Of a DNA stretch of 64,000 nt, positions 2,228 to 57,571 are shown piece after piece. Both the position numbers and the translations under genes were made by a program. Below the pieces are notes generated by a model that worked only from the letters and a program-made list of their open reading frames with translations, had not been told where the DNA came from and did no database searches. Source of the DNA: Cytophagales bacterium (GTDB lineage: Bacteria; Bacteroidota; Bacteroidia; Cytophagales; VRUD01); the NCBI GenBank assembly GCA_019456305.1, contig VRUD01000001.1:9717-73716 (forward strand), given 5' to 3'. Numbering within the stretch: position 1 is the first letter of the stretch; every line of letters starts with the position of its first letter.

Positions 2228-4333
2228 TTACAAACTTCTACCCAGATACTTCACAATCAAAAAAAGCATAACGAATCCTAATAAGTAATTAAAGTACCAT
2301 GGAATGCCCATATTCACAAACACCGCACAAACCAATAAGCTTACCACAGCCACAGTGATTGCATAAGGCAATTGCGTTCTCACATGATCTACATGATTAC
2401 AATTGGTTGCTAATGAGCTCAGGATGGTTGTGTCAGAAATGGGCGAGCAGTGGTCACCAAATACCGAACCGGCCAGCACTACGGAAATAACATTATAGAA
2501 TATCGGCATTGATTGCCCGGTTTCAAAACCACTTTGCTGGCATAATAGCCAGGTAGCGGGAAGCATCAAAGGGTATAAAATTGCCATCGTGCCCCAGCTT
2601 GATCCGGTTGAAAATGAGATCAGCGCTGCCAGGATAAAAACTACAGTGGGCATCCATACGGGAGAAATAGCACCGCTGAACAAGGAAGTAAGAAAATCGG
2701 CTGTATGCAGATCCCCGGTTATTTTTGCCAGCGACCATGCCAGGATCAGGATCAGTACTGCAGGAAGCATGGTTTTGAAACCAAATACTAATGTATCCAT
2801 TATTTTTCTTAGCGGCATGATCCTTTGAATGACGGTTAACAGAATGGCTAAAACGACACCTGATAATGACGCCCAGAGCAAAGCCACATAAGCATCAGCA
2901 TTGCCGATAATGATCCCGAGTTTCCTGAAAAATGCTACATCCTGTCCGTTGTTAAGATGGTAAAGGTTTTCCCATACATTCATAAAGGAATAATCCTGTA
3001 TGACAATTCCGGCCTCCAATAAATTATCAAAAGATTTGTGAGCGCCTGTAACCAAAAGCGCTGCTATTGTTACTAAGACTACTGATATAACGGGAATAAA
3101 TGCATTGTACCACTTTTGTTTTACACCCTCGACAGGGTCCAAATCTTTAAGTGATTCATTATTTTCGAATTTCGAATTTCGAGTTTCGAGTTTCGAGTTT
3201 CGAGTTTCGAATTTCGAATTTCGAGTTTCGAATTTCGAGTTTCGAATTTTGAGTTTCGTCCCGAGTACTCGGGATCGAATTTCAGCCTTATACATTGACC
3301 CGAAATCCTTTTTAAAGTATATCAAAAAGAACATAAATACCAGTGTGAAAATGGGATAGAAAGCATATTGCAGCGAATTCAAAAACATTGAATAAGCATT
3401 TTCATTGATCCTTAAGTTAACCGAAGCATCCTGGATATAACCAAGCTCAGCTCCGATCCAGGTGGTAATAAATGCGATAGCAGCTACAGGCGCTGCAGTA
3501 CTATCCACTATATAAGCAAGCTTTTCTCTGGATATCTTGAACTTATCTGTTACCGGGCGCATGGTGTTGCCAACGATAAGTGTATTGGCGTAATCGTCAA
3601 AGAAAATAGCAATGCCCAGAAACCAGGTAATAAATTGCGCACTTCTGGCAGACTTTGCGTATTTTGATAATTTGTCAACAACTCCTGCCATCCCTCCGTT
3701 TTTGGAAATGATCGCTACCATGCCGCCAATCAATGTTGAAAATAAAATTACCGACAAATGCCCTGTGTCCATCATTGCGTTAATGATATAATTATCAAGC
3801 ACGTTGTACATGGCTGGGATCCAGTTTTTAGGATGAAAGCCAAGTAATATAAGCGCTCCTGAAAATATACCCAGGAAAAGCGACACCAACACCTCTCTGA
3901 ATATCAGCGCCATGGCAATGGCAATAAGCGGAGGCAGAATGCTGAGCCAGGCAGGGATATGTCTGATTTTGAAAAATTTAGCTATTCCGGAGTCCGTGTC
4001 CTTTACCGTTATTTTCTTTGATCCGTCAATTATGACAGGTGCAATGCCCATCCCTTCTTTAAACAGGATGATCTTGTTTTTACCATCAAACTGAAATACA
4101 AATTTTCCTTTAATAGACCTGTCTCTGTTGTCGTTCCTGTCTAAAGCGGTTATTTTTACATCTACATTTTTCCTGAACACATATTCGGGCGCTTCTATTA
4201 CAAAGTTTTTGATCCTGAGGGCTTGGACAGAAATACTGTATGTATCTTTGTTTTGCCGGGTAATTTTGATATTTTGTGCACAGGTAAAAATTGAGCATAA
4301 TAACAGCAGGCTTATCAATTGTACCTTTTTCAT
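2228..4333 (-). CDS. NhaC-family Na+/H+ antiporter with an N-terminal extracytoplasmic domain
   Basis: Many TM segments plus the NhaC-type block YANTLIVGNTMRPVTDKFKISREKLAYIVDSTAAPVAA. Start is MKKVQLISLLLLCSIFTCAQ (4331-4333), or 12 nt upstream at 4345. The central loop carries a repeat insertion. Confidence 0.75.
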   Translation of the reverse strand: MKKVQLISLLLLCSIFTCAQNIKITRQNKDTYSISVQALRIKNFVIEAPEYVFRKNVDVKITALDRNDNRDRSIKGKFVFQFDGKNKIILFKEGMGIAPVIIDGSKKITVKDTDSGIAKFFKIRHIPAWLSILPPLIAIAMALIFREVLVSLFLGIFSGALILLGFHPKNWIPAMYNVLDNYIINAMMDTGHLSVILFSTLIGGMVAIISKNGGMAGVVDKLSKYAKSARSAQFITWFLGIAIFFDDYANTLIVGNTMRPVTDKFKISREKLAYIVDSTAAPVAAIAFITTWIGAELGYIQDASVNLRINENAYSMFLNSLQYAFYPIFTLVFMFFLIYFKKDFGSMYKAEIRSRVLGTKLKIRNSKFETRNSKFETRNSKLETRNSKFENNESLKDLDPVEGVKQKWYNAFIPVISVVLVTIAALLVTGAHKSFDNLLEAGIVIQDYSFMNVWENLYHLNNGQDVAFFRKLGIIIGNADAYVALLWASLSGVVLAILLTVIQRIMPLRKIMDTLVFGFKTMLPAVLILILAWSLAKITGDLHTADFLTSLFSGAISPVWMPTVVFILAALISFSTGSSWGTMAILYPLMLPATWLLCQQSGFETGQSMPIFYNVISVVLAGSVFGDHCSPISDTTILSSLATNCNHVDHVRTQLPYAITVAVVSLLVCAVFVNMGIPWYFNYLLGFVMLFLIVKYLGRSL
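3165..3285. repeat. Heptamer array (TCGAATT/TCGAGTT)n plus CCCGAGTACTCGGG core, inside the NhaC ORF
   Basis: About 13 tandem 7-mers at 3165-3258 followed by TCCCGAGTACTCGGGA at 3259-3274. On the - strand this translates as ..EIRSRVLGTKLKIRNSKFETRNSKFETRNSKLETRNSKFE.. with no stop codon. Confidence 0.85.
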
Positions 4334-4540
4334 ATTAAAAGTCATTTAATAATTTGGTGCGGGGTAAAATTATTCTTTTTTTGAAAGATTACTATATTAA
4401 TGTTGAGACAATTTACTACCTTTGATAGCTACATAAAAATAAGAGTTGGCAGCGGCAGCAGCAGGAGGCAGGACTGCCAACTGCCGCTGCCTACTGCTGC
4501 TTGTTTGTTTTGTTGTCATTTGTGTAGCTATTTTCCTACA

Positions 4541-7195
4541 ATGAAAAAACCACTTATCATATTCTTATTAATTTTATCGGGACTGCCTGCTGCCGGCTTA
4601 TTTTCTCAAACCCCTCCCGACAAATCGGGATCTCCGCTGCGCTCCGAAAAGATTGACAGCCTCCTGCAGGTCTTAAAAAATGCCAAAGAAGACACCACTA
4701 AAATAAAAACCCTCATTAATAAAGAGATTGGTAATAAGCAGGGCATTGCAGTTTCAAACATCAATATTGGAGTGATTTATACCGAGCAAAAGCAGTATGA
4801 TAAAGCGATAGAACGAATTAGTGAAGGTTTAAAACTGGCAAAAAACATTGGCCATAAAGAATGGATGCAGCTTGCTTATAAGAGTTTTACAGATTTGTAT
4901 GTAAAACAGAAGAATCATAAAAAAGCTTTAGAGTATCACCAACTTTATGTGCAGACAAAAGACAGCCTCTTCAACGAAGAAAAATCCAAAGACATAGGCA
5001 GGGTGGAAGCAAGGCACGAGACAGAAATGCAGATGATGGAAGAGCAGGCAAAGGTGAAGGCTGAAGCGGATAAGATAGAAAAGGAAAAAAAACGCAGGAA
5101 TTACTGGCAGTATTCGGCTATTTTTATCGTATTTGTTATTTTGTTTTTGAGTTTATTCCTGCTGACAAGGTTTCATATTCCCATAACTGTTGCAGAAGGG
5201 ATCATTTTCACTGTATTTCTGCTGTTTTTTGAGTTTATCCTGGTATTGGCTGAGCCATGGATAGAAGCTATCTCACACGGAGAACCGGCTATTATCCTTG
5301 CATGCAATGCAGCGCTTGCAGGAATGATTTTTCCCTTTCACAGTTTCTTTGAAGCTAAGGTGAAAGAAAGGATAGTAAAACAGTCGGCAGTTGGCAATAG
5401 GCAGTTGGCAAAAAGAAAATCCAATATTACAAAACTTACCATGTTGTTGATGATTGCCTTTACTAATAGCTTTTACAGCTATTCTCCTACTTACACAGAG
5501 TCGAACTTTTCTAAACCTATGAAGTTTAGGAAAGTTATTGTTAAGGGAGCGCTTAGTTTTTCCAATTCAGATAATCAAGCAAAAACCCAATTCGTAAATC
5601 GTAAGTCTGAAATCGTAAATCCTACCATTGATTCTCTTGAAAATATGCTCAAAGCCCTTTCTGTTGGTGAGGGACGGGGCAAAAATGAAATTTCCAGATT
5701 AAAAATTCTAACCCGACTCATCCTGGAATACGAATTAACTGACCCTAATAAAGCCTTGCAATACGGAATGGAGGGTTTGGCTTTAGCAAAGCGTATGGCA
5801 AATTTGCCTGATGCATTTTTAGCAAAAGAAGGTAAAATAGGTGTAGCATCTTGTTTAAATAATATGGGGCTGGTTCATCAGGCACAAGGCAGCTACCAAA
5901 AAGCTACGGATCAATTCCTCTATTCATTAAAAATTAAAAAAGAATTATTTAACTCCCTCCCTACTGGTAAGGACAGTGAATGGATTAAACATGGAATTGC
6001 CAACAGCTTAATCAATCTCGGAGAAGTAAACAGACTTCAGGGAAATTACGACAAAGCCATTGATTATGATCTGCAATCTTTACAAAATTATGAGCAGTTA
6101 AAAGAATCATCTTTCAAAGCTCTGGCAAGGTCTGGCCAAATAGGGATTTCAAATTGTTGGAATAATATTGCTATAATTTATTATTACCAGCGTAACTATG
6201 AAAAAACCCTGGATTATTTCTTTCAATCTATAAAAATTAAAGAGAAACTAGGCAATAAAAGATTAATTGCAGAAAATTTAGGTAATATAGGGGTTATTTA
6301 TAAAATTCAGGGTAAAATTGAAAAAGCAATGAAGTATTATATGAAATGTTTAACACTAAGAAAGCAATTGGGATCAACTGGAGGATTTTCCAGCATTTTG
6401 ATTAATATCGCAAATATTTATACCATGCAGGGTAAATATAAAAAAGCCCTAAACTACCACTTTCAGGCATTGAAAATTACTCAACAGTTAGGTTATAAAG
6501 ATCAATCTGCTTTATGTCTGGATAATATTGGGGATATATATTCAAAGCAAAAGTATTATAAAAAGGCCATCTTATACTTTCACAAAGGTATAAATATTGC
6601 AAAGGAGATTGGATCTAAAATAGTACTCATGGATAGCTATAAACACCTTTCTAATACGTATGCCCAACTGGTAGAACACCCTCTTGCTCCTATTACCAGG
6701 GCAGTTGCTTACAAGCAAGCTTTTGAATACCACAAATTATATGCAGCTATTAAAGACAGCCTGTTTAATGAAGAAAAATCAAAAGAGATCGGCAGGTTGG
6801 AAGAGCACTACCTGATAGAAAAGAAAATAGCGAAAGAAAAAGCTAAAGCCAAAGTAGAGGCGGTGATAAAATCCGAAAAAAAAGCGCAAAGGCATAGACT
6901 TCAATTTATGGGCAGCTTTATTGTCATTGTAGCATTGTTAATAGTTGTATTCACACTTGCCGGGGTTTATATTCCGATTGGTTTTGCAAAAATACTGATT
7001 TTCATTATCTTCGTGCTGTTATTTGAATTTATCCTGGTGTTGTTAGACCCAATGGTAGATGAATTTTCCGGTGGAGCACCGGCAATAAAGCTTGCTTTCA
7101 ATGCCATGGTGGCAGGGATGATGTATCCTTTACACAGGTTTCTTGAGTCTAAACTTAAAAGTATGATATTAAAAAAGAAAACGAAGAGAACATAA
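4541..7195 (+). CDS. TPR-repeat membrane protein; apparent fusion of two tandem paralogous units
   Basis: MKKPLIIFLLILSGLPAAGLFSQ is a signal-like start at 4541. The block TPR - DSLFNEEKSK(D/E)IGR coiled coil - 3 TM with LLFFEFILVL occurs twice (about 4541-5380 and about 5640-7195). The 4400 start of the track ORF reads through an upstream hairpin. Confidence 0.6.
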   Translation: MKKPLIIFLLILSGLPAAGLFSQTPPDKSGSPLRSEKIDSLLQVLKNAKEDTTKIKTLINKEIGNKQGIAVSNINIGVIYTEQKQYDKAIERISEGLKLAKNIGHKEWMQLAYKSFTDLYVKQKNHKKALEYHQLYVQTKDSLFNEEKSKDIGRVEARHETEMQMMEEQAKVKAEADKIEKEKKRRNYWQYSAIFIVFVILFLSLFLLTRFHIPITVAEGIIFTVFLLFFEFILVLAEPWIEAISHGEPAIILACNAALAGMIFPFHSFFEAKVKERIVKQSAVGNRQLAKRKSNITKLTMLLMIAFTNSFYSYSPTYTESNFSKPMKFRKVIVKGALSFSNSDNQAKTQFVNRKSEIVNPTIDSLENMLKALSVGEGRGKNEISRLKILTRLILEYELTDPNKALQYGMEGLALAKRMANLPDAFLAKEGKIGVASCLNNMGLVHQAQGSYQKATDQFLYSLKIKKELFNSLPTGKDSEWIKHGIANSLINLGEVNRLQGNYDKAIDYDLQSLQNYEQLKESSFKALARSGQIGISNCWNNIAIIYYYQRNYEKTLDYFFQSIKIKEKLGNKRLIAENLGNIGVIYKIQGKIEKAMKYYMKCLTLRKQLGSTGGFSSILINIANIYTMQGKYKKALNYHFQALKITQQLGYKDQSALCLDNIGDIYSKQKYYKKAILYFHKGINIAKEIGSKIVLMDSYKHLSNTYAQLVEHPLAPITRAVAYKQAFEYHKLYAAIKDSLFNEEKSKEIGRLEEHYLIEKKIAKEKAKAKVEAVIKSEKKAQRHRLQFMGSFIVIVALLIVVFTLAGVYIPIGFAKILIFIIFVLLFEFILVLLDPMVDEFSGGAPAIKLAFNAMVAGMMYPLHRFLESKLKSMILKKKTKRT

Positions 7196-7221: not shown

Positions 7222-7430
7222 GATTTAAAAATTATTATGGATGTTATTTTTTGGATAAAATTGATCGCTTTCTGGGCATTTGCTCTTGTTTTCTGTTTAT
7301 TATTTGCCCCGGAAGGTGATACACTTATATTTGGAAATAAGCTAAAACGTGGGACAGTAATTAAAATTATGTATTTATTCTTTTGGATTCTCTCAAGCTT
7401 GTTAATTCTTTGGGGCGTCATATAAATATA

Positions 7431-7742
7431 GTTGGCAATCGGCAATCGGCAGTCGGCAGTCCACAATCGACAGTCCACAGTCGGCAGTTGGCAGTTGGCA
7501 GTCCACAGTCCACAATCGGCAGTTGGCAGTCCATCCCGAGTACTCGGGAGCAGTCGGCAATTGTTTTTTGCCGACTGGGGACTGCCGACTGCCGATTGAT
7601 TAAGTTAAGTTTCTAAATCCAGTTGCCATATTGTTTTAATGGTTTGATTGTTATTTTCTTTTTTGTCGACTGTGGACTGCCGACTGCCGACTGATTTTTT
7701 TGCCGACTGGAGACTGTAGATTGCCGACTGCCGACTGCCAAC
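7431..7742. repeat. ~310-bp foldback built from GGCAGTC/GGCAGTT/CCACAGT heptamers around a CCCGAGTACTCGGG core
   Basis: 7431-7533 holds heptamers in GGCAGTY orientation and the core is at 7534-7549. 7570-7606 and 7664-7742 hold the complementary words (CCGACTG, GACTGCC). It lies between convergent genes. Confidence 0.8.
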
Positions 7743-7745
7743 TTT

Positions 7746-9296
7746 TTATTCACTTATTCCCTTTCCCGGGAGTGCAGCAATTATTCTATTGGCCATCTTC
7801 TGTATATTATCACCGATGATCCGTTGGATGTTATTTGAGTTTGAGTTATAGAAGATCTTTATTTTGCTGCCTGCAATTTGTTTGCCCTCCCTGTTATAAA
7901 TGGAGTAATGAACTATAAAATCCCGTTCATAATCCTGCCTCGTCCTGTCTAAACAATGCTCATAATTGGTATTTACTTCAAATTGAGTAACGAAGATATA
8001 ATATCCCAGGTCGTATTTTTTGTTGAAGTATTCAAAAAATTTAGGGTCTTTGATCTTTGCTCCAAAATATTTATTTTCAAACTTCATCTTGCCAAACCTG
8101 CCTGAAAAAGGAGATTCAGGGCTTTTTTTTAATTTTCTTTTCACTGTTTCGAGAGATACAGGCAAAGCCTTTTCTTTTGGAGGGGCATAATTATCTACAT
8201 AATCCGGTTCATTGACCAAATCCTGGTAATTATAAGTTAACGACCTGTATATTTTATTCAGATCAGTTACCGAATCTTCAATGGAGCCTCCCATAAGATG
8301 CACGGTTTCATAATCAGGGGACTGGATCATTGTATTTAAGTTTTTACGGAAAACCTGCCTTACTTTAGTTCTTGGAATACCAGATGCAGCAGCGATCTCA
8401 TCATCAGCATCGGAAAAATATAAATAAGGGTCAAAAGGTACGACTAAAACTTTTTTCTGGGTTCCGGGAACTGGGTTCTTGTCGGAGCGAAGCATAGATC
8501 CCCCCGAGTACTCGGGGGGGGTATTGGTTTCTGGGTACTGATCATCTATTCCCTCTATTTCCCCTTTTACTTCTATTTCCGTATTTACTTCTTTTTCCTC
8601 TATTTCCTCTACATCCTCTACTTCCTTTACTTCCTTTATTTCCTTTACTTTCTTCATATCTTCTTTTTTGCGTGACTTTATATATTCCTTTGCTAACACT
8701 TTTTCCACTGTTTCAACTTCACCCTTTGCCTTATATCCAACAATAAGTTTCTGGCCTGCTTTTATATGCAGGTCATTCAATCCCATTAATTGATCAAGAG
8801 ATATATTGTATTTTTTTGATAAACTCCAAAGGGTCTCTCCTGGTTTTACAATATGAATTATAGCTTCTTTGAATGTTTGTTTTTCTACCAGTATTGTAGG
8901 TTGATGTTCTCCGGTTTCCACGATATGTATGATAATACCTTTTTCAGAAATTCCGGATCTTTTGATGACATCAGGATGATATGGAATGTTGATGACCTGC
9001 CCTGTTTTCAAACCGTTTTCCAATGCAGGATTAATTTCCAGTAGCCCGGCAATGGGTACGCCATGTTTTGTAGAAATTCCATAGATGGTCTCACCGGCAG
9101 AAACCAGGTATATGAGATGGAGCTTGCCTTTGATCTTCTGGACACCGATCGAATCGCAGGAAGGATATGGGGAAATAGAGGAATAGGGAAATAAGGATTT
9201 CGAGTTTCGAGTTAAGGGTATAAGAGTATGTGTTATAGCAGAATAAACTATTGAACTAAAAAAAAACAATAGAAAAATAACAGAATTGTATTTCAT
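7746..9296 (-). CDS. LysM-domain protein (2 LysM) with an acidic KE-rich linker and an unknown C-terminal domain
   Basis: Two LysM-like blocks: YLVSAGETIYGISTKHGVPIAGLLEINPAL..GQVINIP and HIVKPGETLWSLSKKYNISLDQLMGLNDL..GQKLIV. It has an N-terminal signal sequence. Confidence 0.7.
   Translation of the reverse strand: MKYNSVIFLLFFFSSIVYSAITHTLIPLTRNSKSLFPYSSISPYPSCDSIGVQKIKGKLHLIYLVSAGETIYGISTKHGVPIAGLLEINPALENGLKTGQVINIPYHPDVIKRSGISEKGIIIHIVETGEHQPTILVEKQTFKEAIIHIVKPGETLWSLSKKYNISLDQLMGLNDLHIKAGQKLIVGYKAKGEVETVEKVLAKEYIKSRKKEDMKKVKEIKEVKEVEDVEEIEEKEVNTEIEVKGEIEGIDDQYPETNTPPEYSGGSMLRSDKNPVPGTQKKVLVVPFDPYLYFSDADDEIAAASGIPRTKVRQVFRKNLNTMIQSPDYETVHLMGGSIEDSVTDLNKIYRSLTYNYQDLVNEPDYVDNYAPPKEKALPVSLETVKRKLKKSPESPFSGRFGKMKFENKYFGAKIKDPKFFEYFNKKYDLGYYIFVTQFEVNTNYEHCLDRTRQDYERDFIVHYSIYNREGKQIAGSKIKIFYNSNSNNIQRIIGDNIQKMANRIIAALPGKGISE
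8500..8519. repeat. CCCCCCGAGTACTCGGGGGG palindrome inside the LysM ORF
   Basis: Perfect 20-bp palindrome, translated in frame as ..PPEYSGGS.. Confidence 0.8.
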
Positions 9297-12394: not shown

Positions 12395-13057
12395 ATGGAA
12401 ACTCAACAAAAACCCATAACGATTTACACAGAAGCCAACCCCAATCCAAACTCGCTGAAGTTTGTCGCTGATTTTATGTTGGCGCCTGAAGGCAGCAGCT
12501 TTGATTATCCCGATGTCAGCAGCGCTGCTGACGCACCATTGGCATTGGCGTTATTTCAGTTCCCGTTCGTAAGGCGTGTGTTTTTTGCATCCAATTTTGT
12601 TACCATCACAAAGGATGAGAATACAAGCTGGGAAGATATTGCTCCTTCGCTTAAAGATTTTATTAAGAGTTATCTTGAAGCAGGAAAGCCAATACCGCGC
12701 AGCAGCCCCCCTCTAACTCCCGGCCCACCTGAATCGGAGAAACGGGGAATCGGAGAAACGGAGAGAAGGAAAACGAAGCAATTCACCGATTCGGTAAGGA
12801 ATAGTGGAGGAGGGGCTCCTGATTCTGAAATAGTAAAGAAAATAAAGAATGTTTTAGAACAGTATGTCCGTCCTGCGGTTGAAATGGATGGCGGCAATAT
12901 TAGTTTTGACTCATTTCAGGATGGTGTTGTTAAGGTAAACCTGCAGGGCGCCTGCAGCGGCTGCCCTTCTTCTGCAATAACATTAAAGCAAGGGATAGAA
13001 AACCTTTTTAAACAGATGGTTCCGGAGGTGAAGGAAGTGGTGGCTGAGGGGGTTTGA
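12395..13057 (+). CDS. Nfu/NifU-like Fe-S cluster scaffold protein
   Basis: Nfu N-terminal domain (NPNSLKF...) and a C-terminal NifU domain with the CSGCPSS pair. The inter-domain linker carries a repeat insertion. Confidence 0.8.
   Translation: METQQKPITIYTEANPNPNSLKFVADFMLAPEGSSFDYPDVSSAADAPLALALFQFPFVRRVFFASNFVTITKDENTSWEDIAPSLKDFIKSYLEAGKPIPRSSPPLTPGPPESEKRGIGETERRKTKQFTDSVRNSGGGAPDSEIVKKIKNVLEQYVRPAVEMDGGNISFDSFQDGVVKVNLQGACSGCPSSAITLKQGIENLFKQMVPEVKEVVAEGV
12728..12807. repeat. CGGAGAAA-word hairpin element in frame in Nfu; homologous to 55450-55605
   Basis: CCTGAATCGGAGAAACGGGGAATCGGAGAAACGGAGAGAAGGAAAACGAAGCAATTCACCGATTCGGTAAGGAATAGTGG. It encodes PESEKRGIGETERRKTKQFTDSVRNSGG. Confidence 0.85.
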
Positions 13058-13858: not shown

Positions 13859-13882
13859 CCATTATTAACCTTCACTCCATTA

Positions 13883-13972
13883 GGGCATCTCTAAAAACTA
13901 CACCATACATTCCCCTCTATCAAGAGGGGCAAGGGGTGTGTTTTAAAAAATATGTAGTTTTTAGAGATGCCC
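13883..13972. mobile_element. 90-bp MITE-like element (copy 1), 20-bp perfect TIR GGGCATCTCTAAAAACTACA
   Basis: Identical at 90/90 positions to 49125-49214. It sits between the RAYT relic and the A2M start. Confidence 0.7.
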
Positions 13973-13993
13973 ATTAGATAATTTTTTATAATC

Positions 13994-22504: not shown

Positions 22505-23370
22505 GATTAGTAGATTTTAGTTAATGTTAAATAATTTGTTTACGGAAAATTGTTTTGGCAGAAGGACTAAAACAGTCAGAGAGATTCTCTTTTTTTTGTG
22601 TAATTTAAATTGCCGGATTGTGTGATTTAAACTCTGATATTGTAGGATTTTGTTTTAATTTTTTGTAGGTTTTTATCCTACAATGATGATAAGAAAGATA
22701 TGTATAACAAGGATGAGAAGAAGCGTTTAGAGAAGTTTAAGCTTTAATCAGAAAAGTTTTAGAAGAGTTGTTAAAAGAGATGGTTGATCATGATTCTGGT
22801 TTCAGTGCTGTCAGGTGTTACCACCTGCCACCAAATCCTCATTGAACACTAAAATATTTTTTTACCGTATTTTAATTTTTTAAATTTTAATAAAATTAAC
22901 GGATCTACAAACGGTCATAAACAATAACCTGCCAAAATAATGTCTTATGATAAAAACATCTTTTAAAGCCATTTTTTATGATCAAATGCTTCCGTTTGAC
23001 AGCAACAAGTCATAATTCGCAGGTTTATTACGTACGCATATTTACGTATTTTCAAAATTACGTAAACTTTTTGTCAAAATAATCGTAATTTAATTTGTAT
23101 TTTAAAAACATTAATTTGTACTTTTAGGAAGATTTTTACTATTTGCATTTTTATCAAAGCTATTTGCATTCTATCAAAATGGAGTATTTAAGTTTTCTTA
23201 TGTGCCTGATATCATCCCAAGCTGCAAAATGCAGCTGTTTTTTTCTGAATAAAATTACCTGTCTGCGTCCCGGGCACTCGGGACAGGCAGGCAAGATCAG
23301 GAAATCTTCTGCTGATTATTCTTTTGGCGCATACGCATGGTATGGAGCAAAGGCCAAAGCGTTGAACGCC

Positions 23371-28572: not shown

Positions 28573-29400
28573 ATGTTCTATTTATTGAGAAAATTAATTA
28601 GGTGTAGTATTATCATTTTGGTGTGGTGTCAGGTGTTTCCACCTGACACTCCTGTATTTGCACAGGCTGATAAAACAGCCCGGGAAAATACAGATATGAT
28701 CCCACTTGCTAATGATATGTATAATTTCAGGCATTTTAAAGATGCTCAGGATATCTACCTTAAAGTTCTGGAATTTGGTCCTGATAATGCTGCGGTCAAC
28801 TTGTTGGCAGGTTTATGTTATCTTAAAACAGTGAATAAAGTAAAAGCCATCCCGTATTTAAAAAAAGCACACCAATTGAACCCCGAAATATTGAAGCTAA
28901 TGGTTGATTATATTGAATTTAGCGATGAAGAATTAGCGCGGATCAATTCAACTGATTATATTATATATTTGATAGCAAAAGGATATCACCTGACTCATGA
29001 TTTTAACAAGGCGATAGAATATTATGAGCGTTACCATGATAGTGTTTTGCAAAGAGATTTTTTTAAATGGGGATACAGGTCAAGTGAAAAAAATGAGCTT
29101 ATTAATAAGATAAAGAGAAATATCTTTGAATGTAATAATGGAAAAGAATTTGTGAAGTACCCCGTAGGTGCGTTAATTGACAATATAGGAGTGCTGATCA
29201 ATACGCCTCATTCGGAATATGTACCCTTGATCTCTGCTGATGATTCTGTGCTGATCTTTACATCCAGAAGAATGGGAAGCACTGGCTGGAACAGGTCCGA
29301 AGATCATGACTTTTTTGAAGATATTTATATATCCCGTAAAAGAGGGAATTACTGGGTAAAACCGAAATATAGGCAGCGATATAAATTCTGCCTTACATGA
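28573..29400 (+). CDS. TPR + first PD40 (TolB-like) repeats; 5' part of a frameshifted OmpA-family gene
   Basis: Signal peptide ..VFA|QAD, then TPR-like helices, then ..FTSRRMGSTGW..EDIYIS..YWVKPK. The reading continues in the +1 frame from about 29365. Confidence 0.7.
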   Translation: MFYLLRKLIRCSIIILVWCQVFPPDTPVFAQADKTARENTDMIPLANDMYNFRHFKDAQDIYLKVLEFGPDNAAVNLLAGLCYLKTVNKVKAIPYLKKAHQLNPEILKLMVDYIEFSDEELARINSTDYIIYLIAKGYHLTHDFNKAIEYYERYHDSVLQRDFFKWGYRSSEKNELINKIKRNIFECNNGKEFVKYPVGALIDNIGVLINTPHSEYVPLISADDSVLIFTSRRMGSTGWNRSEDHDFFEDIYISRKRGNYWVKPKYRQRYKFCLT

Positions 29401-32641: not shown

Positions 32642-32806
32642 ATCAATTAATAAAAAAAGGTGTTCAGTCAGGTAAATTAACTTATAAGGGATATGGTGAA
32701 GAAAAACCGGTTGTGCCCAACGATACAAAAGAAAAACGGCAGCTTAACAGGAGGGTGGAGTTTGAAATTTTAAATTAAAAAGGTTTTCGTGGTGTCGGGT
32801 GTTTCC
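32642..32806. repeat. 165-bp direct repeat, copy 2
   Basis: See 31701-31865. Confidence 0.9.
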
Positions 32807-32852
32807 TTGTAGAGACGTTGCATGCAACGTCTCTACAAGGAAACACCCGACA
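32793..32852. repeat. 60-bp perfect palindrome (nested hairpin elements)
   Basis: TGTCGGGTGTTTCCTTGTAGAGACGTTGCA|TGCAACGTCTCTACAAGGAAACACCCGACA is an exact reverse complement. It is followed by TCAGGTGGAAACACCTGA at 32859-32876. Confidence 0.9.
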
Positions 32853-42000: not shown

Positions 42001-42732
42001 TTTGGAAAGGAAAAAATGAAGAAATTTCTTAAATATGAATTGGACAGATATTTAAGAGGTAGAAGTTTTGAACGAAAAAAGGAACTGCCGTTGATATTGG
42101 TAGAAGGACAGGGATATATTCATTATCAGAAAGGTGGGTTGGTAATGTACGCATTGCGTGATTACATAGGAGAGGATTCATTAAATGAAGCGTTAAGAAA
42201 ATATATCAAAGCAGTAGCTTATCAACAACCCCCATATACCAATTCACTGGAATTTTTAAGCTATATCAAATCAGCTACCCCCGATTCTCTGCAATATATA
42301 ATAAAGGATATGTTTGAAACGATTACCTTGTATGAAAACAAAACCAATGAAGCTGTACTTAAAAAACGCCCGGATGGTAAGTATGCTGTTAAGATTAAGG
42401 TAGCGTCTAAAAAGTTACGGGCTGACAGTTTGGGAAATGAAAAAGAGATCCCTGTTAACGACTGGATAGATATTGGGATATTTGGTAAATCCGAATTGAA
42501 AGCAGAGACGCCCAATTTGGACGTCTCTGCTTTCAATTCGGAAAAAAACTCTAATTCGGATAAATCCTCTATTGGTAAGCCTTTGTACCTGAAAAAACAT
42601 AAAATTAACCAGCCGGAAATGGAATTTGAAATTATTGTAGACGAGCTTCCCTGGAAAGCCGGCATAGATCCCTATAATAAATTAATTGACCGTGATTCGG
42701 GAGATAATGTAAAGAAGGTAGGGGCTGGTTGA
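38995..42732 (+). CDS. ABC-2-type permease fused to an M1-family zinc aminopeptidase domain
   Basis: The ATG at 38995 overlaps the ATPase stop (ATGTTTAA). About 12 TM segments run to roughly 40800. Then comes a peptidase domain with HEVAHQWW...E zinc site. Two hairpin insertions are carried in frame. Confidence 0.8.
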   Translation: MFKEIFFFELKYRFKRPANYIYFGIFFLLTFLAVNGMAGGFKGVVISVGSGGGGKVLANSPYQIYLLITLLSYFGILVTSAIMGNPVYRDFEHQTHSLFYSKPISKFGYLAGRFLGSLVIAFLVFLGLGIGILTASWMPWLDQDYIGPFYAMAYVQPYLVTVLPNLIFTGAIFFALATLTRNILSTYVGSVVFLVLYFMGLSLLSDLENETIAALLDPFGESATGLATKYWTVAEKNTLIIPFTGHLFFNRIIWLSAGVLIFAFAYKKFSFSYFISEKRSRKKLKQQTLETETIDWAGKFLIPRATRIFSFSTNLVQYIKLTGQELKGIVKNVYFIAILFAGVVLMFVNGSQVGKFYGTTTYPVTYQVISIISGSFGLFFLIIIIFYAGELVWRERTTKINQIFDALPIPNWVPFSSKLTALILLQVVLLLVVMLCGLIIQVFKGYYHFETGLYVKSLFGLQFIELALLCVLAMLVQVIVNHKYLGHFIMVVYFLVSIFMAQFGWEHKLYDYADDPGYTYSDMNGFGHFILPIGWFKIYWTAFAVSLAILSNLFWVRGLETSLKWRTQLARRQFVKPTKIAFILALLVFFISGGFIFYNTNILNEYMTSNEREELSVEYEKRYKKFENSPQPRITDVNVNVDIYPLSRDVAFKGHYILKNKTNEAIDSIHIDINRNITINDMSFDRNHKMVLEDEKIGYYIVELSKPLLPGENVVLQFDLAFTTKGFKNSGSNTSIVENGTFLHSNSYLPAIGYNEGGELSDDDTRKKHGLKPKERMALVNDSNARLNNYISHDADWITFEATISTSPDQIAIAPGYLQREWTEGNRRYFHYKMDCKILNFYSFLSARYEVIRDSYGPTSPPNSPPKSPQRGAVRGAIEIYYHKGHEYNLDAMVKAIKRSLDYYTENFSPYQHKQVRILEFPRYASFAQSFPNTIPYSEAIGFIAQVDEDDEDDIDYPFYVTAHEVAHQWWAHQVIGGNVQGATVMSETMSQYSALMVMEKEFGKEKMKKFLKYELDRYLRGRSFERKKELPLILVEGQGYIHYQKGGLVMYALRDYIGEDSLNEALRKYIKAVAYQQPPYTNSLEFLSYIKSATPDSLQYIIKDMFETITLYENKTNEAVLKKRPDGKYAVKIKVASKKLRADSLGNEKEIPVNDWIDIGIFGKSELKAETPNLDVSAFNSEKNSNSDKSSIGKPLYLKKHKINQPEMEFEIIVDELPWKAGIDPYNKLIDRDSGDNVKKVGAG
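41572..41625. repeat. 54-bp hairpin in frame in the M1 domain
   Basis: AGCCCCCCTAACAGCCCCCC (41572-41591) is the perfect reverse complement of GGGGGGCTGTTAGGGGGGCT (41606-41625). It encodes ..SPPNSPPKSPQRGAVRGA.. Confidence 0.9.
42491..42541. repeat. 51-bp hairpin (AGACG-CCCAATTTGG-CGTCT core family) in frame in the M1 domain
   Basis: CCGAATTGAAAGCAGAGACG (42491-42510) is the perfect reverse complement of 42522-42541, with loop CCCAATTTGGA. It encodes SELKAETPNLDVSAFNS. Confidence 0.9.
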
Positions 42733-44003: not shown

Positions 44004-44368
44004 TTTATCACTATTGTCCGGGAAAATTTAGAACATAACTTTCCCTGTCTGTCTCAGGCAGATAAGTTGTTTAAAAATAATAGTTGGTCCCGCCTCAGGC
44101 GGGAGCAGCAAGCAGTTGGCAAAATGGTAGTTCGCAACAAGAAAACAAAGAACTTCGCAACAAGTCAGAAGAAGTAGGACGAATGTTGAATCACATGATA
44201 GAAAATCCTGAAAAGTATCGATCAAGATAGTAGGCAATTTTGCCAATTGCCCATTGCCAACTGCCAACTTCTCTATAAAGCCGACTGCTCCCGAGTACTC
44301 GGGATGTATAATTTTTTTTAATCTATTTTCAAAGTATATGTTCTTTTGTGGTTTTGCTATATAGTTCT

Positions 44369-46631: not shown

Positions 46632-46660
46632 TGATTTTGGTTAGTTGGAAAGTGTTTTTT

Positions 46661-46787
46661 GCCACAAAAGCACAAAAGCACTAAATCCCACTAAAAATTA
46701 ACTAATTGATTTTCAGGGTTTTGTGGGATTTAGTGCTTTGGTGTTTTAGTGGCATTTTTATTTTTTGGACTTTTTAGAGTGGACTCA
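46661..46787. repeat. Second copy of the 2066-2218 hairpin (outer left arm missing)
   Basis: GCCACAAAAGCACAAAAGCACTAAATCCCAC..loop..TTTTGTGGGATTTAGTGCTTTGGTGTTTTAGTGGCATTTTT..GAGTGGACTCA. Confidence 0.8.
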
Positions 46788-47047
46788 AATAGTAAAATTA
46801 AATTCATGGCAAAAGTACTTCATCTCTCACAGAATATCAACCAAATTTATTTTATAAAAAAAACATCACTAAAAATTTGTATATTAAAAAACCATCCAAT
46901 ACCTTCGCCCGCAATTTTTGATCCACGCCTGTAGGCGCGGGATCAATATTTAATTTATTATTTAAACAAACACGGAACACGGAACGTACAGACGCCCAAA
47001 TTGGGCGTCTCAACATTCCTCAAATTCCTCAAAACAAATTAATTATC

Positions 47048-47610: not shown

Positions 47611-47652
47611 AAAAAAGCCCTGCTCCCGAGTACTCGGGACGGGGCTTTTTTT
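47611..47652 (+). terminator. Intrinsic-terminator-like hairpin with the CCCGAGTACTCGGG core in its loop
   Basis: AAAAAAGCCCTGC-TCCCGAGTACTCGGGA-CGGGGCTTTTTTT, 24 nt after the stop. Confidence 0.7.
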
Positions 47653-49026: not shown

Positions 49027-49066
49027 AAAAAGCCCTGATCCCGGGTATTCGGGAGGGGCTTTTTTT
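49027..49066 (+). terminator. Terminator-like hairpin with core variant CCCGGGTATTCGGG
   Basis: AAAAAGCCCTGA-TCCCGGGTATTCGGGA-GGGGCTTTTTTT. Confidence 0.65.
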
Positions 49067-49124
49067 CAACTACATGAATGTTTTTTTAAAAGAATAAAAA
49101 TCGTTAAATTAGTAATTACCTTTT

Positions 49125-49214
49125 GGGCATCTCTAAAAACTACACCATACATTCCCCTCTATCAAGAGGGGCAAGGGGTGTGTTTTAAAAAATATGTAGT
49201 TTTTAGAGATGCCC
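49125..49214. mobile_element. 90-bp MITE-like element (copy 2) with a 12-bp target-site duplication
   Basis: Identical to 13883-13972. It is flanked by TAATTACCTTTT at 49113-49124 and 49215-49226. Confidence 0.8.
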
Positions 49215-49693
49215 TAATTACCTTTTTTAAAAAACACCCCCATCCCCAGCCTGAACACAAACGCATTTGATAGAACATAATAGTCTGCATTTGCCTCAAC
49301 AGCCCAGTGATCGTTAAGCATAAAATCATTTCCCAGACCGAATGAAACATCAAAACTACTTCCCTTTAGTGGGGCTTTTACCAAATAATAACCTTTACTT
49401 CTTAAAAAAAAGGTTTCAGAAAAATATAACCTTAGACCGAGCGCTGCAGCGCTTCTGCTTAAAGAATTAAAATACTCAAAACCCCCGGATAAGGCGAATT
49501 TATCAGCAGCAAAGTAGTTAAGGTCAAATCCAAAGCCAACGCTTTTACCAAAATTCTTGAATGGCTTTTTGTTGTTTGTATTGTATAGATTAACCCCACC
49601 GTTTAGCAGAAAATCTCCCTGGTAAGGTTGGGCATTTGCTGTTAAAACACAACTCATTGCCGCTACAAAGACAGAAAATTTGAATGCTTTCAT
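49214..49693 (-). CDS. Small outer-membrane beta-barrel protein
   Basis: Signal peptide MKAFKFSVFVAAMSCVLTANA|Q followed by alternating beta-strand pattern. 159 aa. Its stop codon TAG is formed at the MITE junction. Confidence 0.65.
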   Translation of the reverse strand: MKAFKFSVFVAAMSCVLTANAQPYQGDFLLNGGVNLYNTNNKKPFKNFGKSVGFGFDLNYFAADKFALSGGFEYFNSLSRSAAALGLRLYFSETFFLRSKGYYLVKAPLKGSSFDVSFGLGNDFMLNDHWAVEANADYYVLSNAFVFRLGMGVFFKKGN

Positions 49694-51977: not shown

Positions 51978-52763
51978 TTAAATGCAGTATCTATTCCATA
52001 TCTCCCATGCCTTCTCCGCCTGCAAATACAACATTTCAAGCCCGTTTTTAATTTTAGCTCCTTTTTCTTTTCCTTTCCTTAGAAACAAAGTTTCTTCGGG
52101 ATTATACACAAGGTCAAAAAGGAAATGCGAATGATCAATTGCCTTGTATGGTATGTCAGGGCATTTATTCACATCCGGGAACATGCCTAAAGGTGTTGCG
52201 TTGATTATTAATTTATGTTGTTTTACTATTTCTTCAGTTAGTTCATTATATTGGGTACTGAGTTCTGGGTTCTCGGTGCTGGGTTTTTGGCGGGAAACAA
52301 GTTGATAATCTATACCAAGGTTTTTAAATACTATGCTGACAGCTTTTGCCCCTCCCCCGGTTCCCAGGATCATTGCTACTAAATTTTTGGACGAATCTCC
52401 TGGCAAAAATTTCAACAAAGATTCTTTGAAACTAACTACATCTGTGTTGTAACCAATAAGCTTTGAACTTTGAACTTTGAACTCTGAACTCTGAACTTTT
52501 ATCGTATTAACAGCACCAGCTTCTTCAGCTATTTCATCCAGTTCATCTAAATAAGGAATGATTGATTCTTTATAGGGAATGGTAACATTTAAACCGGTTA
52601 TATCCGGATTATTTTTTATAAAATCAGGAAAATCACTTATTTGTTTTAATTCAAATAGTTCATAACAAGCATTTTTTATGCTTCCTTTATTAAACTTTTC
52701 TGTAAAATACTGTGATGAAAAAGAATGGGTGAGGGGAAAACCTATTAATCCAAAAGTTCTCAA
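51978..52763 (-). CDS. aroE: Shikimate dehydrogenase
   Basis: GLIG.PL.HS.S, NVTIPYK, GAVNTI...GYNTD and GTGGGAKA motifs. It carries two heptamer-repeat tracts in frame. Confidence 0.9.
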   Translation of the reverse strand: MRTFGLIGFPLTHSFSSQYFTEKFNKGSIKNACYELFELKQISDFPDFIKNNPDITGLNVTIPYKESIIPYLDELDEIAEEAGAVNTIKVQSSEFKVQSSKLIGYNTDVVSFKESLLKFLPGDSSKNLVAMILGTGGGAKAVSIVFKNLGIDYQLVSRQKPSTENPELSTQYNELTEEIVKQHKLIINATPLGMFPDVNKCPDIPYKAIDHSHFLFDLVYNPEETLFLRKGKEKGAKIKNGLEMLYLQAEKAWEIWNRYCI

Positions 52764-53807: not shown

Positions 53808-53925
53808 AAAAAAGTAGGTAGCAGCAATTGACAGTGGTAGTCCCTACGCCTACGAATTACGAATTTCCCGAATTACGAATTCGTAATTCTTAGGAAAGGC
53901 GCTCTATGAAAAAAATAAACATAGA

Positions 53926-54817: not shown

Positions 54818-55975
54818 TTACAAGCCATACCTTCTTTTTAATTCATCACACGTCCATCTTATGGTGTCATTGATGTCTCTGAAATTCAAGCCTTCTTTTC
54901 CGTTAGACAGGCTTAATAAATTCCTTATCTTTCCATTATTGTAATGCAATGAATTTAAAGATGATTTTACAATATCTTTAGTGACCAAGGGCGGCTTTCC
55001 TGTGAAAAGAGATCTTATTATTTCAAATCTCCATGCAATACCACCCCAAAATGGTGATACCATGATATTGGGTTTTCTTTTATCAAAATTCAGCGCAATA
55101 ATATCAAATAATTCCTTATAAGATATTTTACCGGCAAAAATTAAGTACCTTTCATTATTTATCCCGGTATTGATCAACTGCAGCGTGATTTCAGCCAGAT
55201 CCCTCACATCAATATAATGCACCTCCCGGGTAGTATAAAAAGGATATTGTTTCCATACATATTGAAATATTTTTGAACTGCCTTTTTTCCAATTACCAGG
55301 ACCTAATACCACTGCCGGGTTTAATATAACGGCATTGAGTCCTTCTTCTATGCCTCGCCATACTTCCATTTCCGCAAGATATTTTGTTTGGGCGTATAAT
55401 GACACTTCTTCATAGACTGAAAATTGGATTTTTTCATTAATACCAGCCTTCCCCCCACTATTCCTTACCGAATCGGTGAATGGGTGAATCGGTGAATCGG
55501 TGAATTGCTTCGTTTTTCTTCTCTCCGTTTCTCCGATTCCCCGTTTCTCCGTTTCAGGAGGGCTGGTGTGGCTGCCGCTTATTCCCCGTTTCTCCGATTC
55601 AGGGAGGCTGGTAGGTTTGCCTATTGCCGCAACCGAACTTAAATGACAAAGTTTTTTTACACCTTTTTTGATACATACATTTACAATATTTGAGGTACCC
55701 TCTACATTTGTTTTGAATATTAATTTCTTGTCATGGTAAGATAATGAAACCATGGCAGCCGTATGGATAACCGTATCAACGCCTTCAATACTTTTTTCTA
55801 AACCCGTAATATCAAGTATATCTCCTTCTATCCACTCGATTTTATCAGCAATATCAGCAACGAGAGACAGATCGCTCGTTTTTCTTTTTAAAGCGCGCAG
55901 GCGATTGCCTTGCTGTAGTAATTTTCTGGCTATAAAACTCCCTACCAAACCAGTGCAGCCGGTGATGAAAAACAT
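54818..55975 (-). CDS. NAD-dependent epimerase/dehydratase (SDR) family protein
   Basis: GCTGLVG Rossmann motif at the N-terminus and a YAQTK catalytic Y..K. An insertion of about 50 aa lies between SSVAAIG and the YxxxK region. Confidence 0.8.
   Translation of the reverse strand: MFFITGCTGLVGSFIARKLLQQGNRLRALKRKTSDLSLVADIADKIEWIEGDILDITGLEKSIEGVDTVIHTAAMVSLSYHDKKLIFKTNVEGTSNIVNVCIKKGVKKLCHLSSVAAIGKPTSLPESEKRGISGSHTSPPETEKRGIGETERRKTKQFTDSPIHPFTDSVRNSGGKAGINEKIQFSVYEEVSLYAQTKYLAEMEVWRGIEEGLNAVILNPAVVLGPGNWKKGSSKIFQYVWKQYPFYTTREVHYIDVRDLAEITLQLINTGINNERYLIFAGKISYKELFDIIALNFDKRKPNIMVSPFWGGIAWRFEIIRSLFTGKPPLVTKDIVKSSLNSLHYNNGKIRNLLSLSNGKEGLNFRDINDTIRWTCDELKRRYGL
55450..55605. repeat. Expanded copy of the CGGAGAAA-word element, in frame in the epimerase
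   Basis: Its rc contains CCTGAATCGGAGAAACGGGGAAT...CGGAGAAACGGAGAGAAGAAAAACGAAGCAATTCACCGATTC..GGTAAGGAATAGTGG. It encodes ..PESEKRGISGSHTSPPETEKRGIGETERRKTKQFTDSPIHPFTDSVRNSGG.. Confidence 0.85.
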
Positions 55976-56009: not shown

Positions 56010-56046
56010 CCCTGTTAAATAATCCCGAGTACTCAGGATAACAGGG
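56010..56046. repeat. Hairpin CCCTGTTA..ATCCCGAGTACTCAGGAT..TAACAGGG
   Basis: Core at 56022-56039, located between the epimerase start and the kmo stop. Confidence 0.75.
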
Positions 56047-56089
56047 TAAATATACGAATGAATGTGAATTATACGAATTTAATCCAAAA

Positions 56090-57571
56090 CTAAATATCTG
56101 ATGGTATAAACGACTGGGCATATTTGTTCCGAATCAATTCATCAATGAGACTTTCAACTTCCTCACTATCCCATTTTTGTTCTATATCCTCAATAGTAGT
56201 GATTTCTTTGAGCATTTTATCCTGTTCTTTGCCGATCCGCATAGCTTCAGCATAGGGGATATGGCTAAACATGACCATAGAATATAAGGGAGTAAATTTA
56301 TCAGGGTATGATTTATGGATCTTTCTTTCAAGATTTTTTCGTACTAAAAATTTAGGGTCTCCTACCAGGTCGCGCATTTCAATAAAATTCTGAAGTGCCA
56401 GTTCTGAAATGGCATCCGTATTGGGTTTACGGTTTTTTTCATATTCCTTAAAAATAGTTTCCCACCGTTCTCCCCCGATTGGGTCGTTCCTGCCATCTGG
56501 GCAGGCATACTTTCCCATCAGTTCATTTAGCACTGTTATGTCTTCAAAGCCAGCGATCATTCCCTGGCCGTAAAAGGGAACGATAGCGTGGGCAGCATCA
56601 CCGATCATAGCTACCTTATCTTTGTATGTCCATGGAAAGCAGCGAATATAGCAGAGTGATGAGGTAGGGTTGGCAAAATAAGTTTCAGTCAAAGCAGGCA
56701 TCAAGTCCGCGGCATCAGGGAAGGTTTGAAAAAACTTCAGCAGATCCGATCCTGTTTTTATGGAGTCAAAAGAGGTTGTATCAGTGCCTGTTCCGGAAGA
56801 ATCAGTAGTGTCAGGTGTTTGGTAGAGACGCCCAATTTGGTCGTCTCTACCAAACACCTGACGCCAAGGTAAAAATAAGGTACAGGTAAAGCTCCCATCT
56901 GCATTGGGCAGGGCGATCAGCATATAGTGTTTTCTAGGCCAGATATGTAAGGCATTTTTTTCCATAGCCCAACTGCCGTCAGCGGCAGGCGGAATGGTCA
57001 ATTCTTTATAACCATGTTCAATATAAGTTTGTGCATAATTAAAACGATCGGTCATTTGCATTACACTCCGTATTTGTGAAAAGGTGCCATCAGCGCCAAA
57101 TACCAGGTCACTTTTTACATCTGAGACAGCTCCTGTCTTTTGATTTTCTACTTTGATCACAGCTTCTTCCAAATCAACATCCACGCATTTTTCGTTGAAA
57201 TGAATGGTAGTGTTAGAATTTTTTTCAGCATGGTTCATCAGCGTTTTATTGAGCCCGCTGCGAGAAACAGCGTATATGGCGTCATCTTCTTTTCCGTAGG
57301 GTTGAAAAGAAAGTTCGCCATTGACTGCATGTATCATCCTGCCGCGCATGGGTATGGCTGCCTTGCGGACTTCTTCACCAATGCCCGCATCATCCAGCGC
57401 TTTCCAGCCCCTGGTAGAGCAGGCAAGGTTAATAGACCTGCCGGCAGGTATTTTTGCTTTTCGCATATCGGACCTGCTTTCATAAACATCTACCTGATAG
57501 CCCTTTCTTCCCAGGTATATGGAGAGCAGTGAGCCGATAAGCCCTGCGCCTGTTATGGTGATGTGCTTCAT
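56090..57571 (-). CDS. kmo: Kynurenine 3-monooxygenase (FAD-dependent)
   Basis: ITITGAGLIGSLLSIYLGRKGY FAD fold, GDAAHAIVPFYGQGM motif, and a C-terminal helical region. It carries a hairpin insertion in frame. Confidence 0.85.
   Translation of the reverse strand: MKHITITGAGLIGSLLSIYLGRKGYQVDVYESRSDMRKAKIPAGRSINLACSTRGWKALDDAGIGEEVRKAAIPMRGRMIHAVNGELSFQPYGKEDDAIYAVSRSGLNKTLMNHAEKNSNTTIHFNEKCVDVDLEEAVIKVENQKTGAVSDVKSDLVFGADGTFSQIRSVMQMTDRFNYAQTYIEHGYKELTIPPAADGSWAMEKNALHIWPRKHYMLIALPNADGSFTCTLFLPWRQVFGRDDQIGRLYQTPDTTDSSGTGTDTTSFDSIKTGSDLLKFFQTFPDAADLMPALTETYFANPTSSLCYIRCFPWTYKDKVAMIGDAAHAIVPFYGQGMIAGFEDITVLNELMGKYACPDGRNDPIGGERWETIFKEYEKNRKPNTDAISELALQNFIEMRDLVGDPKFLVRKNLERKIHKSYPDKFTPLYSMVMFSHIPYAEAMRIGKEQDKMLKEITTIEDIEQKWDSEEVESLIDELIRNKYAQSFIPSDI
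56810..56862. repeat. 53-bp nested hairpin in frame in kmo
   Basis: GTCAGGTGTTTGGTAGAGACG (56810-56830) is the perfect reverse complement of 56842-56862, with loop CCCAATTTGGT. It encodes ..RQVFGRDDQIGRLYQTPD.. Confidence 0.9.

Follow-up and report, generated by a model that had tools for sequence, protein, structure and literature searches.

The window analysed here, a 64-kb stretch of DNA, is part of a metagenome-assembled Cytophagales bacterium, and its proteins are deposited at the NCBI as MBW8048743–8788 (locus tag FVQ77). Its counterpart in the ENA is scaffold_409 of ZHAO22-1_SAMN11268109, which extends 243 nt past the window. Short palindromes, hairpins, and tandem arrays lie inside open reading frames (ORFs) that encode, among others, NhaC, a TPR protein, a LysM protein, Nfu, an ABC2-M1 fusion protein, AroE, an SDR epimerase, and KMO, and these host families agree with the Pfam matches. 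A preliminary description of this DNA listed 13 such sites and claimed at least ten in-frame insertions. All 13 sites do fall in long ORFs, and seven of them, in six genes (NhaC, Nfu, both sites of ABC2-M1, the second site of aroE, SDR epimerase, and KMO), are extra relative to homologs, which is the part of the claim that has been borne out.

The repeats form several families. Family A is the palindrome CCCGAGTACTCGGG, which is present in the window in 10 copies (≤2 mismatches), compared with 0.02 expected by chance. It is 16–22 nt in length, and its 16-nt core, TCCCGAGTACTCGGGA, is located at positions 184, 3259, 7534, 8502, 44289, and 47624. Family B (GTAGAGACGCCC-like; 13 occurrences versus 1.2 expected) and family C (TGTCAGGTGTTTCC-like; 11 occurrences versus 4.5 expected) are hairpins that are nested one within another and yield perfect 53–60-nt palindromes. 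The stem of family B starts with GTAGAGACG in the copies in KMO and at 32793 (2 of 5 copies), whereas the copy in the second M1 site has GCAG instead of GTAG, and the copies at 46986 and 48052 have GTAC or GTTG. The GTAG tetranucleotide of this family is base-paired inside the stem. Family N is a hairpin with arms of octamer repeats and is common to the Nfu and SDR epimerase genes. Tandem Repeats Finder reported more than a dozen heptamer arrays (period 7), the longest of which has 13.7 copies and lies in NhaC; five arrays are inside ORFs with the frame kept, though 7 is not a multiple of 3. The preliminary description stated that the same families also occur between genes. This is correct within the window for families A, B, and C and the CAGTYGG heptamers, whereas no intergenic copies were found there of family N, the hairpin of the first M1 site, or the TTTCGAG and CTTTGAA arrays. 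An Rfam scan of the window matched none of the repeat elements; its sole match was the DUF805b RNA at 132–168 (− strand, 41.6 bits), which directly adjoins a palindrome at 180–201.

The insert in NhaC (3163–3285, − strand) consists of 13.7 heptamers (TTTCGAG/TTTCGAA on the + strand) at 3163–3258, followed by the family A core at 3259–3274. It encodes residues ~354–394 (...SRVLGTKLKIRNSKFETRNSKFETRNSKLETRNSKFE), and NhaC has approximately 22 additional amino acids in a hydrophilic loop compared with 18 orthologs. In aroE, the second site (aroE b; 52461–52499, − strand) contains 5.6 heptamers (CTTTGAA on the + strand) translated as KVQSSEFKVQSSK, which provide seven amino acids, or three heptamers, more than the best PDB homologs have. 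The first aroE site (aroE a; 52257–52288, − strand) was rejected both as a significant repeat and as an insertion: it shows no length difference from the best PDB homologs, and Tandem Repeats Finder did not report it even at a score of 30.

The inserts in Nfu (12712–12816, + strand) and the SDR epimerase (55432–55625, − strand) are both family N elements. In Nfu, the octamer repeats GAATCGGA/GAAACGGG...ATTCACCG encode PESEKRGIGETERRKTKQFTDSVRNSGG in the linker that joins the Nfu_N domain to the NifU domain, and the protein is 26 amino acids longer than its 16 orthologs. In the SDR epimerase, approximately 47 additional amino acids (query residues 136–182, unmatched in 3wj7) are located between the strand of the catalytic Ser and the YxxxK helix. 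The DNA of the two elements is 95–100% identical (~98% in a shared core of ~95 nt, including the non-repetitive loop). The SDR copy exceeds the Nfu copy by three octamers (24 nt) and by the duplication of a 5′ segment; the differences are indels of multiples of three, and both copies are in frame. Both are translated in the identical frame, which is the sole frame that is stop-free in both copies. The encoded peptide was found in no other protein among the 5.8 billion searched (two candidates shared words with it, but neither scored) and is therefore not a protein domain; additional in-frame copies likewise failed to emerge from this search. At the DNA level, the 23-nt octamer core of family N (GAAACGGGGAATCGGAGAAACGG) is present in 26 metagenome contigs (L139–L164) with G+C contents from 33% to 69%, mostly in intergenic positions. 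There it often forms a hairpin arm with an inverted octamer array after it, and it adjoins other 7–8-nt arrays. The core marks a widespread class of hairpins with periodic arms.

Three further inserts are hairpins with perfect 21-bp stems. In the ABC2-M1 fusion protein, site a (M1a; 41572–41625, + strand) has 12-nt periodic arms, is a single copy in the window, and is translated as SPPNSPPKSPQRGAVRGA, giving 17 amino acids more than in most of 15 orthologs. Site b (M1b; 42490–42542, + strand) is a palindrome of 53 nt around the family B core AGAGACGCCCAATTTGGACGTCTCT; it is translated as SELKAETPNLDVSAFNSE and gives 20 amino acids more than in 15 orthologs. Both had been assigned to the M1 peptidase domain; they do belong to the fusion protein, but they flank the Pfam M1 catalytic match (residues 927–1120) and are not inside it. 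The KMO insert (56810–56862, − strand), a palindrome of 53 nt, has family C arms around a family B core and is translated as RQVFGRDDQIGRLYQTPD. Here, 29 amino acids (query residues 238–266) are without counterpart in the two best-matching structures (6lkd_A and 5x68_A). The folding z-scores of the M1a, M1b, and KMO hairpins are −6.9 to −11.9, and that of the family N element in the SDR epimerase is −4.6.

The closest orthologs of the host proteins come from Cytophagales or other Bacteroidota, with 57–67% identity. The homolog comparison covered eight of the 13 sites (NhaC, Nfu, M1a, M1b, aroE a, aroE b, SDR, and KMO). Alignment with orthologs, which the preliminary description had suggested as a check, confirmed that the segments are missing from the homologs, with 15–18 orthologs per protein for Nfu, NhaC, and M1. 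A reading of the segments as ancestral or lineage-specific protein loops that merely look repetitive is already contradicted for the seven sites that are extra in this comparison, and it is extremely improbable as a general explanation because the DNA of the segments matches intergenic families and the family N peptide has no counterpart in other proteins. It can draw on the remaining sites, in the TPR and LysM proteins and at 28626–28649, which are in poorly conserved low-complexity regions where loop length is naturally variable. Because the homologs are without the segments, the families are also intergenic, and two unrelated enzymes share near-identical DNA, we favour DNA elements over protein domains, in agreement with the preliminary description.

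These remaining sites are heptamer arrays and small hairpins. The TPR protein has 4.3 CAGTYGG heptamers at 5381–5410 (TPR a, + strand), a family that also forms intergenic arrays at 7430–7750 and 44238–44269, and 4.3 degenerate TCGTAAA heptamers at 5591–5622 (TPR b, + strand). In the LysM protein, a family A palindrome extended to CCCCCCGAGTACTCGGGGGG at 8500–8519 (LysM a, − strand) is translated as PPEYSGG and has a G+C content of 80% inside a gene region of ~36% G+C. A short site at 9198–9213 (LysM b, − strand), just past the signal peptide, holds 2.3 copies of TTTCGAG translated as LTRNSKS, in the same peptide register as in NhaC. The family C hairpin GTGTCAGGTGTTTCCACCTGACAC at 28626–28649 (+ strand) is located in a signal-like segment at the putative N terminus of a TPR ORF of 275 aa; the earlier assignment of this host as an OmpA-family gene is incorrect, since the ORF lies upstream of the PD40/OmpA gene.

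The repeat families themselves are real and include the genic copies, and the host proteins are full length. As had been claimed, the hosts keep their family motifs: the catalytic motifs HEVAH (M1), YAQTK (SDR), CSGCPSS (Nfu), and NT...NTD (AroE) are retained and flank the inserts. Placement of the inserts in loops or linkers is likewise supported by the homolog alignments and by AlphaFold2 models, the latter taking up the suggestion that inserts be mapped onto predicted structures. In the model of the M1 fragment, based on ortholog alignments, the mean pLDDT (predicted local distance difference test) score is 89.5, and the only segments below 50 are residues 96–104 and 402–422 (numbered in the modelled C-terminal fragment), which are the two inserts and are modelled as coil between beta strands. 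The NhaC model has a mean pLDDT of 82.7. Residues 363–395, the peptide encoded by the heptamers, lie between transmembrane helices and are below 50, and the insert is the sole such stretch besides the N-terminal end. The NhaC and M1 inserts are thus predicted to sit in disordered loops.

Could the segments be an artefact of a mis-assembled metagenome bin, or could the hosts be young pseudogenes? The source is a bin without an isolate, and the ENA scaffold stops at approximately window position 44419, beside a repeat locus. However, over window positions 1–39400, which is the range compared, the ENA and NCBI sequences are identical, with zero gaps. The inserts share sequence with dispersed family members, unlike local chimeras, and every host retains its full length and its motifs, free of frameshifts. 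We therefore regard artefact or decay as very improbable.

The distribution of the copies points to a selection filter. Coding sequence occupies 85% of the window, and only 2–3 of the 10 family A copies are genic (binomial tail probability ~1e-4); family A is depleted from genes. Of the loci of families B and C in the window, three of nine are genic. Among the matches listed in other genomes, open frames of ≥150 codons contain 18 of 123 family A copies and cover 75% of the DNA. Those genic copies use all three frames (SRVLG, PEYSG, and PSTR, again among the matches listed), and their hosts are recognisable proteins, for example, methyltransferases, a histidine kinase, and a radical-SAM enzyme. 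Because the majority of family copies are intergenic, the genic copies look like survivors of selection. Heptamer arrays run through all three frames in turn and so survive only if the cyclic unit is stop-free on the sense strand. The array in aroE b is stop-free in one orientation only, which is the orientation present. In TPR b, a perfect TCGTAAA array would create an in-frame TAA, which the third unit, TCTGAAA, escapes, as read directly from the sequence.

Intragenic repeats might instead act as switches or regulators, with the heptamers as contingency loci in which slippage by one unit turns the gene off and the hairpins as regulatory structures in RNA or DNA. The 13–14 near-perfect heptamers in NhaC should indeed be prone to slippage, the hairpins are very stable, and a role as regulatory sites has been proposed for heptamer arrays of other bacteria (PMC4679880). 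Nevertheless, the hosts include single-copy housekeeping enzymes (AroE, Nfu, and KMO), for which on/off switching makes little sense, and identical families occur in many unrelated contexts. No T run follows the intragenic hairpins on the sense strand (direct reading at 42542 and 56810), and no length variant was seen between the two public records in the compared range. A switching role is accordingly quite unlikely in our judgement.

We consider it probable that the spread or expansion of small repeats takes place at the DNA level and that purifying selection has left those genic copies that are in frame, stop-free, and placed in tolerant loops, where they are translated as passengers. Several very small repeat families would colonise the genome, and most copies would settle between genes. 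A genic copy would persist only under three conditions: the frame is kept, no stop arises in the strand and frame used, and the site is a loop or linker that tolerates hydrophilic residues. Such copies would be transcribed and translated within the host protein as passengers without a function of their own, and the inserts are presumably neutral or nearly so. As to the means of spread, the candidates would be a transposase acting in trans, or slippage and strand-switching during replication or repair. Several of the sites are heptamer microsatellite arrays, which may have grown by slippage and are not necessarily discrete inserted elements.

Alternatively, the segments would be filler DNA from local break repair or replication, produced by slippage and snap-back (strand-switching) synthesis, rather than transposed elements. 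The architecture of many loci leaves room for such a process. An array, a loop, and an inverted array follow one another in family N, in M1a, at 7430–7750, at 53854–53889, and at several metagenome loci, and the palindromes are perfect over 21–30 bp. In the intergenic region at 7430–7750, heptamer arrays run in both direct and inverted orientation (CAGTCGG/CCGACTG), and a family A palindrome occupies 7534–7549. The intergenic palindrome at 32793–32852, perfect over 60 nt, is built like the KMO insert, with family C arms enclosing a family B core. Family A is also often at the hairpin apex, with stems differing between copies. Local synthesis cannot, however, explain why identical 16-nt cores are present in many genomes and phyla and why the ~95-nt element of family N is so nearly identical in two distant genes, loop included. 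On balance, purely local filler synthesis appears unlikely.

Several observations weigh against the spread of small repeats as the explanation. No transposase of any kind was found within the window, nor was a Y1 transposase or REP-associated tyrosine transposase (RAYT; REP, repetitive extragenic palindrome). The source is a metagenome bin, and the ENA and NCBI records share one sample. At the identity of the best orthologs, only 57–67%, no empty site and thus no exact insert boundary can be defined. Of the 13 sites, eight are covered by the homolog comparison. We infer, rather than observe, the production of the insert peptides. Finally, the palindrome in NhaC (3259–3285, residues 354–362) contributes no extra residues. 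Read as SRVLG, it overlies a conserved motif (AEIRSRVLG versus AEIRARVTG in orthologs, with the conserved R and G kept), which is unexplained by simple insertion.

Family A extends far beyond this genome. Among species-representative genomes, at least 120 stretches (L004–L123) contain the 16-mer TCCCGAGTACTCGGGA without mismatch; most of those listed are from Bacteroidota, and the matches listed also include Patescibacteria, Aminicenantia, Cloacimonadota, Ignavibacteria, and others. It is absent from Rfam, and no description of it was found in the open-access literature. The 0.8 Mb of flanks around the listed matches contain 35 further near-copies, compared with 1.25 expected, which indicates that many genomes hold a family of these palindromes. 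Copies are often located at the apex of longer hairpins, some of which are terminator-like, and the stems vary from copy to copy; the stem is extended by ≥5 bp in 12 of 127 copies among the matches listed. An example in the window is the intergenic palindrome at 47612–47651, at the apex of the terminator-like hairpin AAAAAGCCC...GGGGCTTTTTT, with a second copy at 49027–49066. In different phyla (L037, L067, L094, and L106), family A is located inside heptamer arrays whose unit sequences differ. The window at 7600–7698 and positions 314–422 of L052 have a 109-nt intergenic repeat in common (86% identity), in which the position of one heptamer in the window copy is taken in L052 by the 16-nt palindrome, and the two can be regarded as an occupied and an empty site. 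L052, a 3-kb contig binned as Solirubrobacterales, was discarded as a close relative; the 109-nt repeat is all that the two have in common, with no orthologous genes.

Two possible marks of mobility were rejected. Direct flanking repeats of ≥3 nt, as a target-site duplication would leave, were seen in 9 of 127 listed copies, mostly in periodic arrays, and are unconvincing. A GIY-YIG nuclease, considered as the enzyme that mobilises family A, has its gene beside the palindromes in L083, but a tblastn search recovered it at only 2 of ~120 loci and at none in the window. The L083 locus (5430–6380; Sphingobacteriales bacterium TSM_CSM) contains three tandem partial copies of tRNA-Asp with a spacing of 139 nt and a fourth after the GIY-YIG gene. 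In the partial copies, the palindrome directly follows anticodon-loop position 37, in place of 12 nt of the tRNA, and an intact tRNA-Asp is present at 5847–5921. We tentatively raise the possibility, which we would not yet call likely, that TCCCGAGTACTCGGGA forms the core of a mobile element, so far undescribed and of extremely small size, that is distributed across phyla, prefers hairpin apices and heptamer arrays, nests into long palindromes, and is a regular source of loop residues in housekeeping proteins of heavily colonised genomes.

The phenomenon itself is of a known kind. Rickettsia palindromic elements (RPEs; Ogata et al. 2000, 2002), as far as they are described in PMC10969869 and PMC3733652, are ~100–150 bp in length, belong to an obligate intracellular alphaproteobacterium, and each encode a conserved peptide. 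Like the RPEs described there, the present families occur both between genes and in frame in unrelated, apparently functional genes, where they add hydrophilic segments at tolerant positions. Intergenic presence, a feature of RPEs, is shared by families A, B, and C and the CAGTYGG heptamers but was not seen within the window for family N and the M1a hairpin. Measured against the same accounts, the present elements are set apart by size and host, being mostly 16–54-nt palindromes or 7–8-nt tandem arrays in a member of the Cytophagales, and their density is higher, with at least seven inserts in six of ~50 genes. The preliminary description was right to cite in-frame palindromes from Rickettsia, but they are not limited to that genus (PMC3733652, PMC10969869). 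Intragenic REPs are known from Opitutus terrae, Thauera, Pseudomonas, Stenotrophomonas, and others (Di Nocera et al. 2013, PMC3733652), and intragenic enterobacterial repetitive intergenic consensus (ERIC) elements and MITEs (miniature transposable elements with inverted repeats) in Coxiella are covered by PMC10969869.

Families B and C resemble the GTAG- and CGTC-tagged REPs, which are hairpins of 20–40 bp, or dimers, that are mostly extragenic, with a minority in frame encoding ~20–30 amino acids; GTAG REPs were unreported from Bacteroidetes in the survey of Di Nocera et al. (PMC3733652). As in those REPs, most B and C loci are extragenic. The stems of the KMO and 32793 copies begin with GTAGAGACG, but the GTAG of family B is paired in the stem and is found in 2 of 5 copies only. 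The window has no RAYT, and families B and C nest into 53–60-nt palindromes. Stem-loop small dispersed repeats of cyanobacteria, said to have been described by Elhai et al. in 2008, are reportedly placed in tandem heptamer arrays, mutually nested, and confined to one cyanobacterial subgroup. Similarly, family A is found in heptamer arrays (at 3259, at 7534, and in other phyla), and at 32793 and 56810 family C encloses family B. Family A differs in being a 16-nt perfect palindrome across phyla and is set apart from SDR1–SDR8 by its hosts.

Heptanucleotide simple-sequence repeats (Mrazek et al. 2007) are known to us through the account in PMC4679880, according to which TAACTGA arrays are present in Beggiatoaceae, Cyanobacteria, and five Bacteroidetes and are almost all intergenic. 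The arrays described here are likewise tandem 7-nt repeats beyond chance expectation, and Bacteroidetes are within the sporadic distribution given there, whereas five of the present arrays are inside ORFs and in frame. In Nematomorpha, mitochondrial genes contain coding palindromes of up to 284 bp (PMC6649704). That system also has long perfect inverted repeats in coding sequence with both arms translated, but it is organellar and without a dispersed intergenic family. A search of the open-access literature yielded no account of in-frame elements in Bacteroidota or of the present sequences. RPEs and intragenic REPs in several phyla are already known; the novelty lies in the phylum, the families, and the density, and the variety of families is notable as well.

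Other repeats in the window were noted in passing. Two intergenic MITE-like elements of ~96 nt (13877–13983 and 49114–49218) have perfect 20-bp terminal inverted repeats (GGGCATCTCTAAAAACTACA) and are 100% identical to each other across 90 nt. Their ends match the family B stem in 10 of 12 bases (TTAGAGATGCCC), a resemblance that could be chance. A dispersed repeat of 134 nt (2088–2220 and 46656–46789; 89% identity) contains an internal hairpin of CACAAAAG-type octamers, and one of its copies overlaps the start of an AMP-binding gene. At the 5′ end of a PKD/Por-tail gene, there is a variant palindrome at 23269–23282 (CCCGGGCACTCGGG) that is embedded in a longer hairpin, and at 23367–23395 a (CGCTATG)x4 array, which overlaps the probable true start and signal peptide (MLYALCAMLLL) and is absent from the preliminary list. 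The palindrome at 23269 and an array at 4474–4501 were considered as extra intragenic sites and left uncounted, as they are probably upstream of the true start codons.

Direct repeats of 30–180 nt bracket small gene cassettes at 27466–27496/28506–28536, 31698–31865/32639–32806, 46843–47024/47917–48090, and 47612–47696/49027–49110. The cassettes include a DUF433–nucleotidyltransferase–HEPN module and ORFs of unknown function, and one of the bracketing repeats is a duplicate of the 3′ end of the OmpA-family gene. At L064 (5540–6580), a DUF433/DUF5615 pair is located between ~65-nt repeats that hold the 16-nt palindrome.

The inserts lengthen proteins and can mislead annotation and domain calls in metagenome bins of Bacteroidota. 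More generally, selfish repeats carried in frame reveal the extent to which proteins accommodate random insertions, and their carriage is one route to new loops. If the rate of six in about fifty genes within 64 kb held genome-wide, the affected proteins would number in the hundreds, well in excess of the reported Rickettsia rates. Should the spread of small repeats be confirmed as the cause, this lineage would be a natural experiment on the positions at which inserts are tolerated, on the frequency of frameshifts in heptamer arrays inside ORFs, and on the mobiliser of the 16-nt palindromes.

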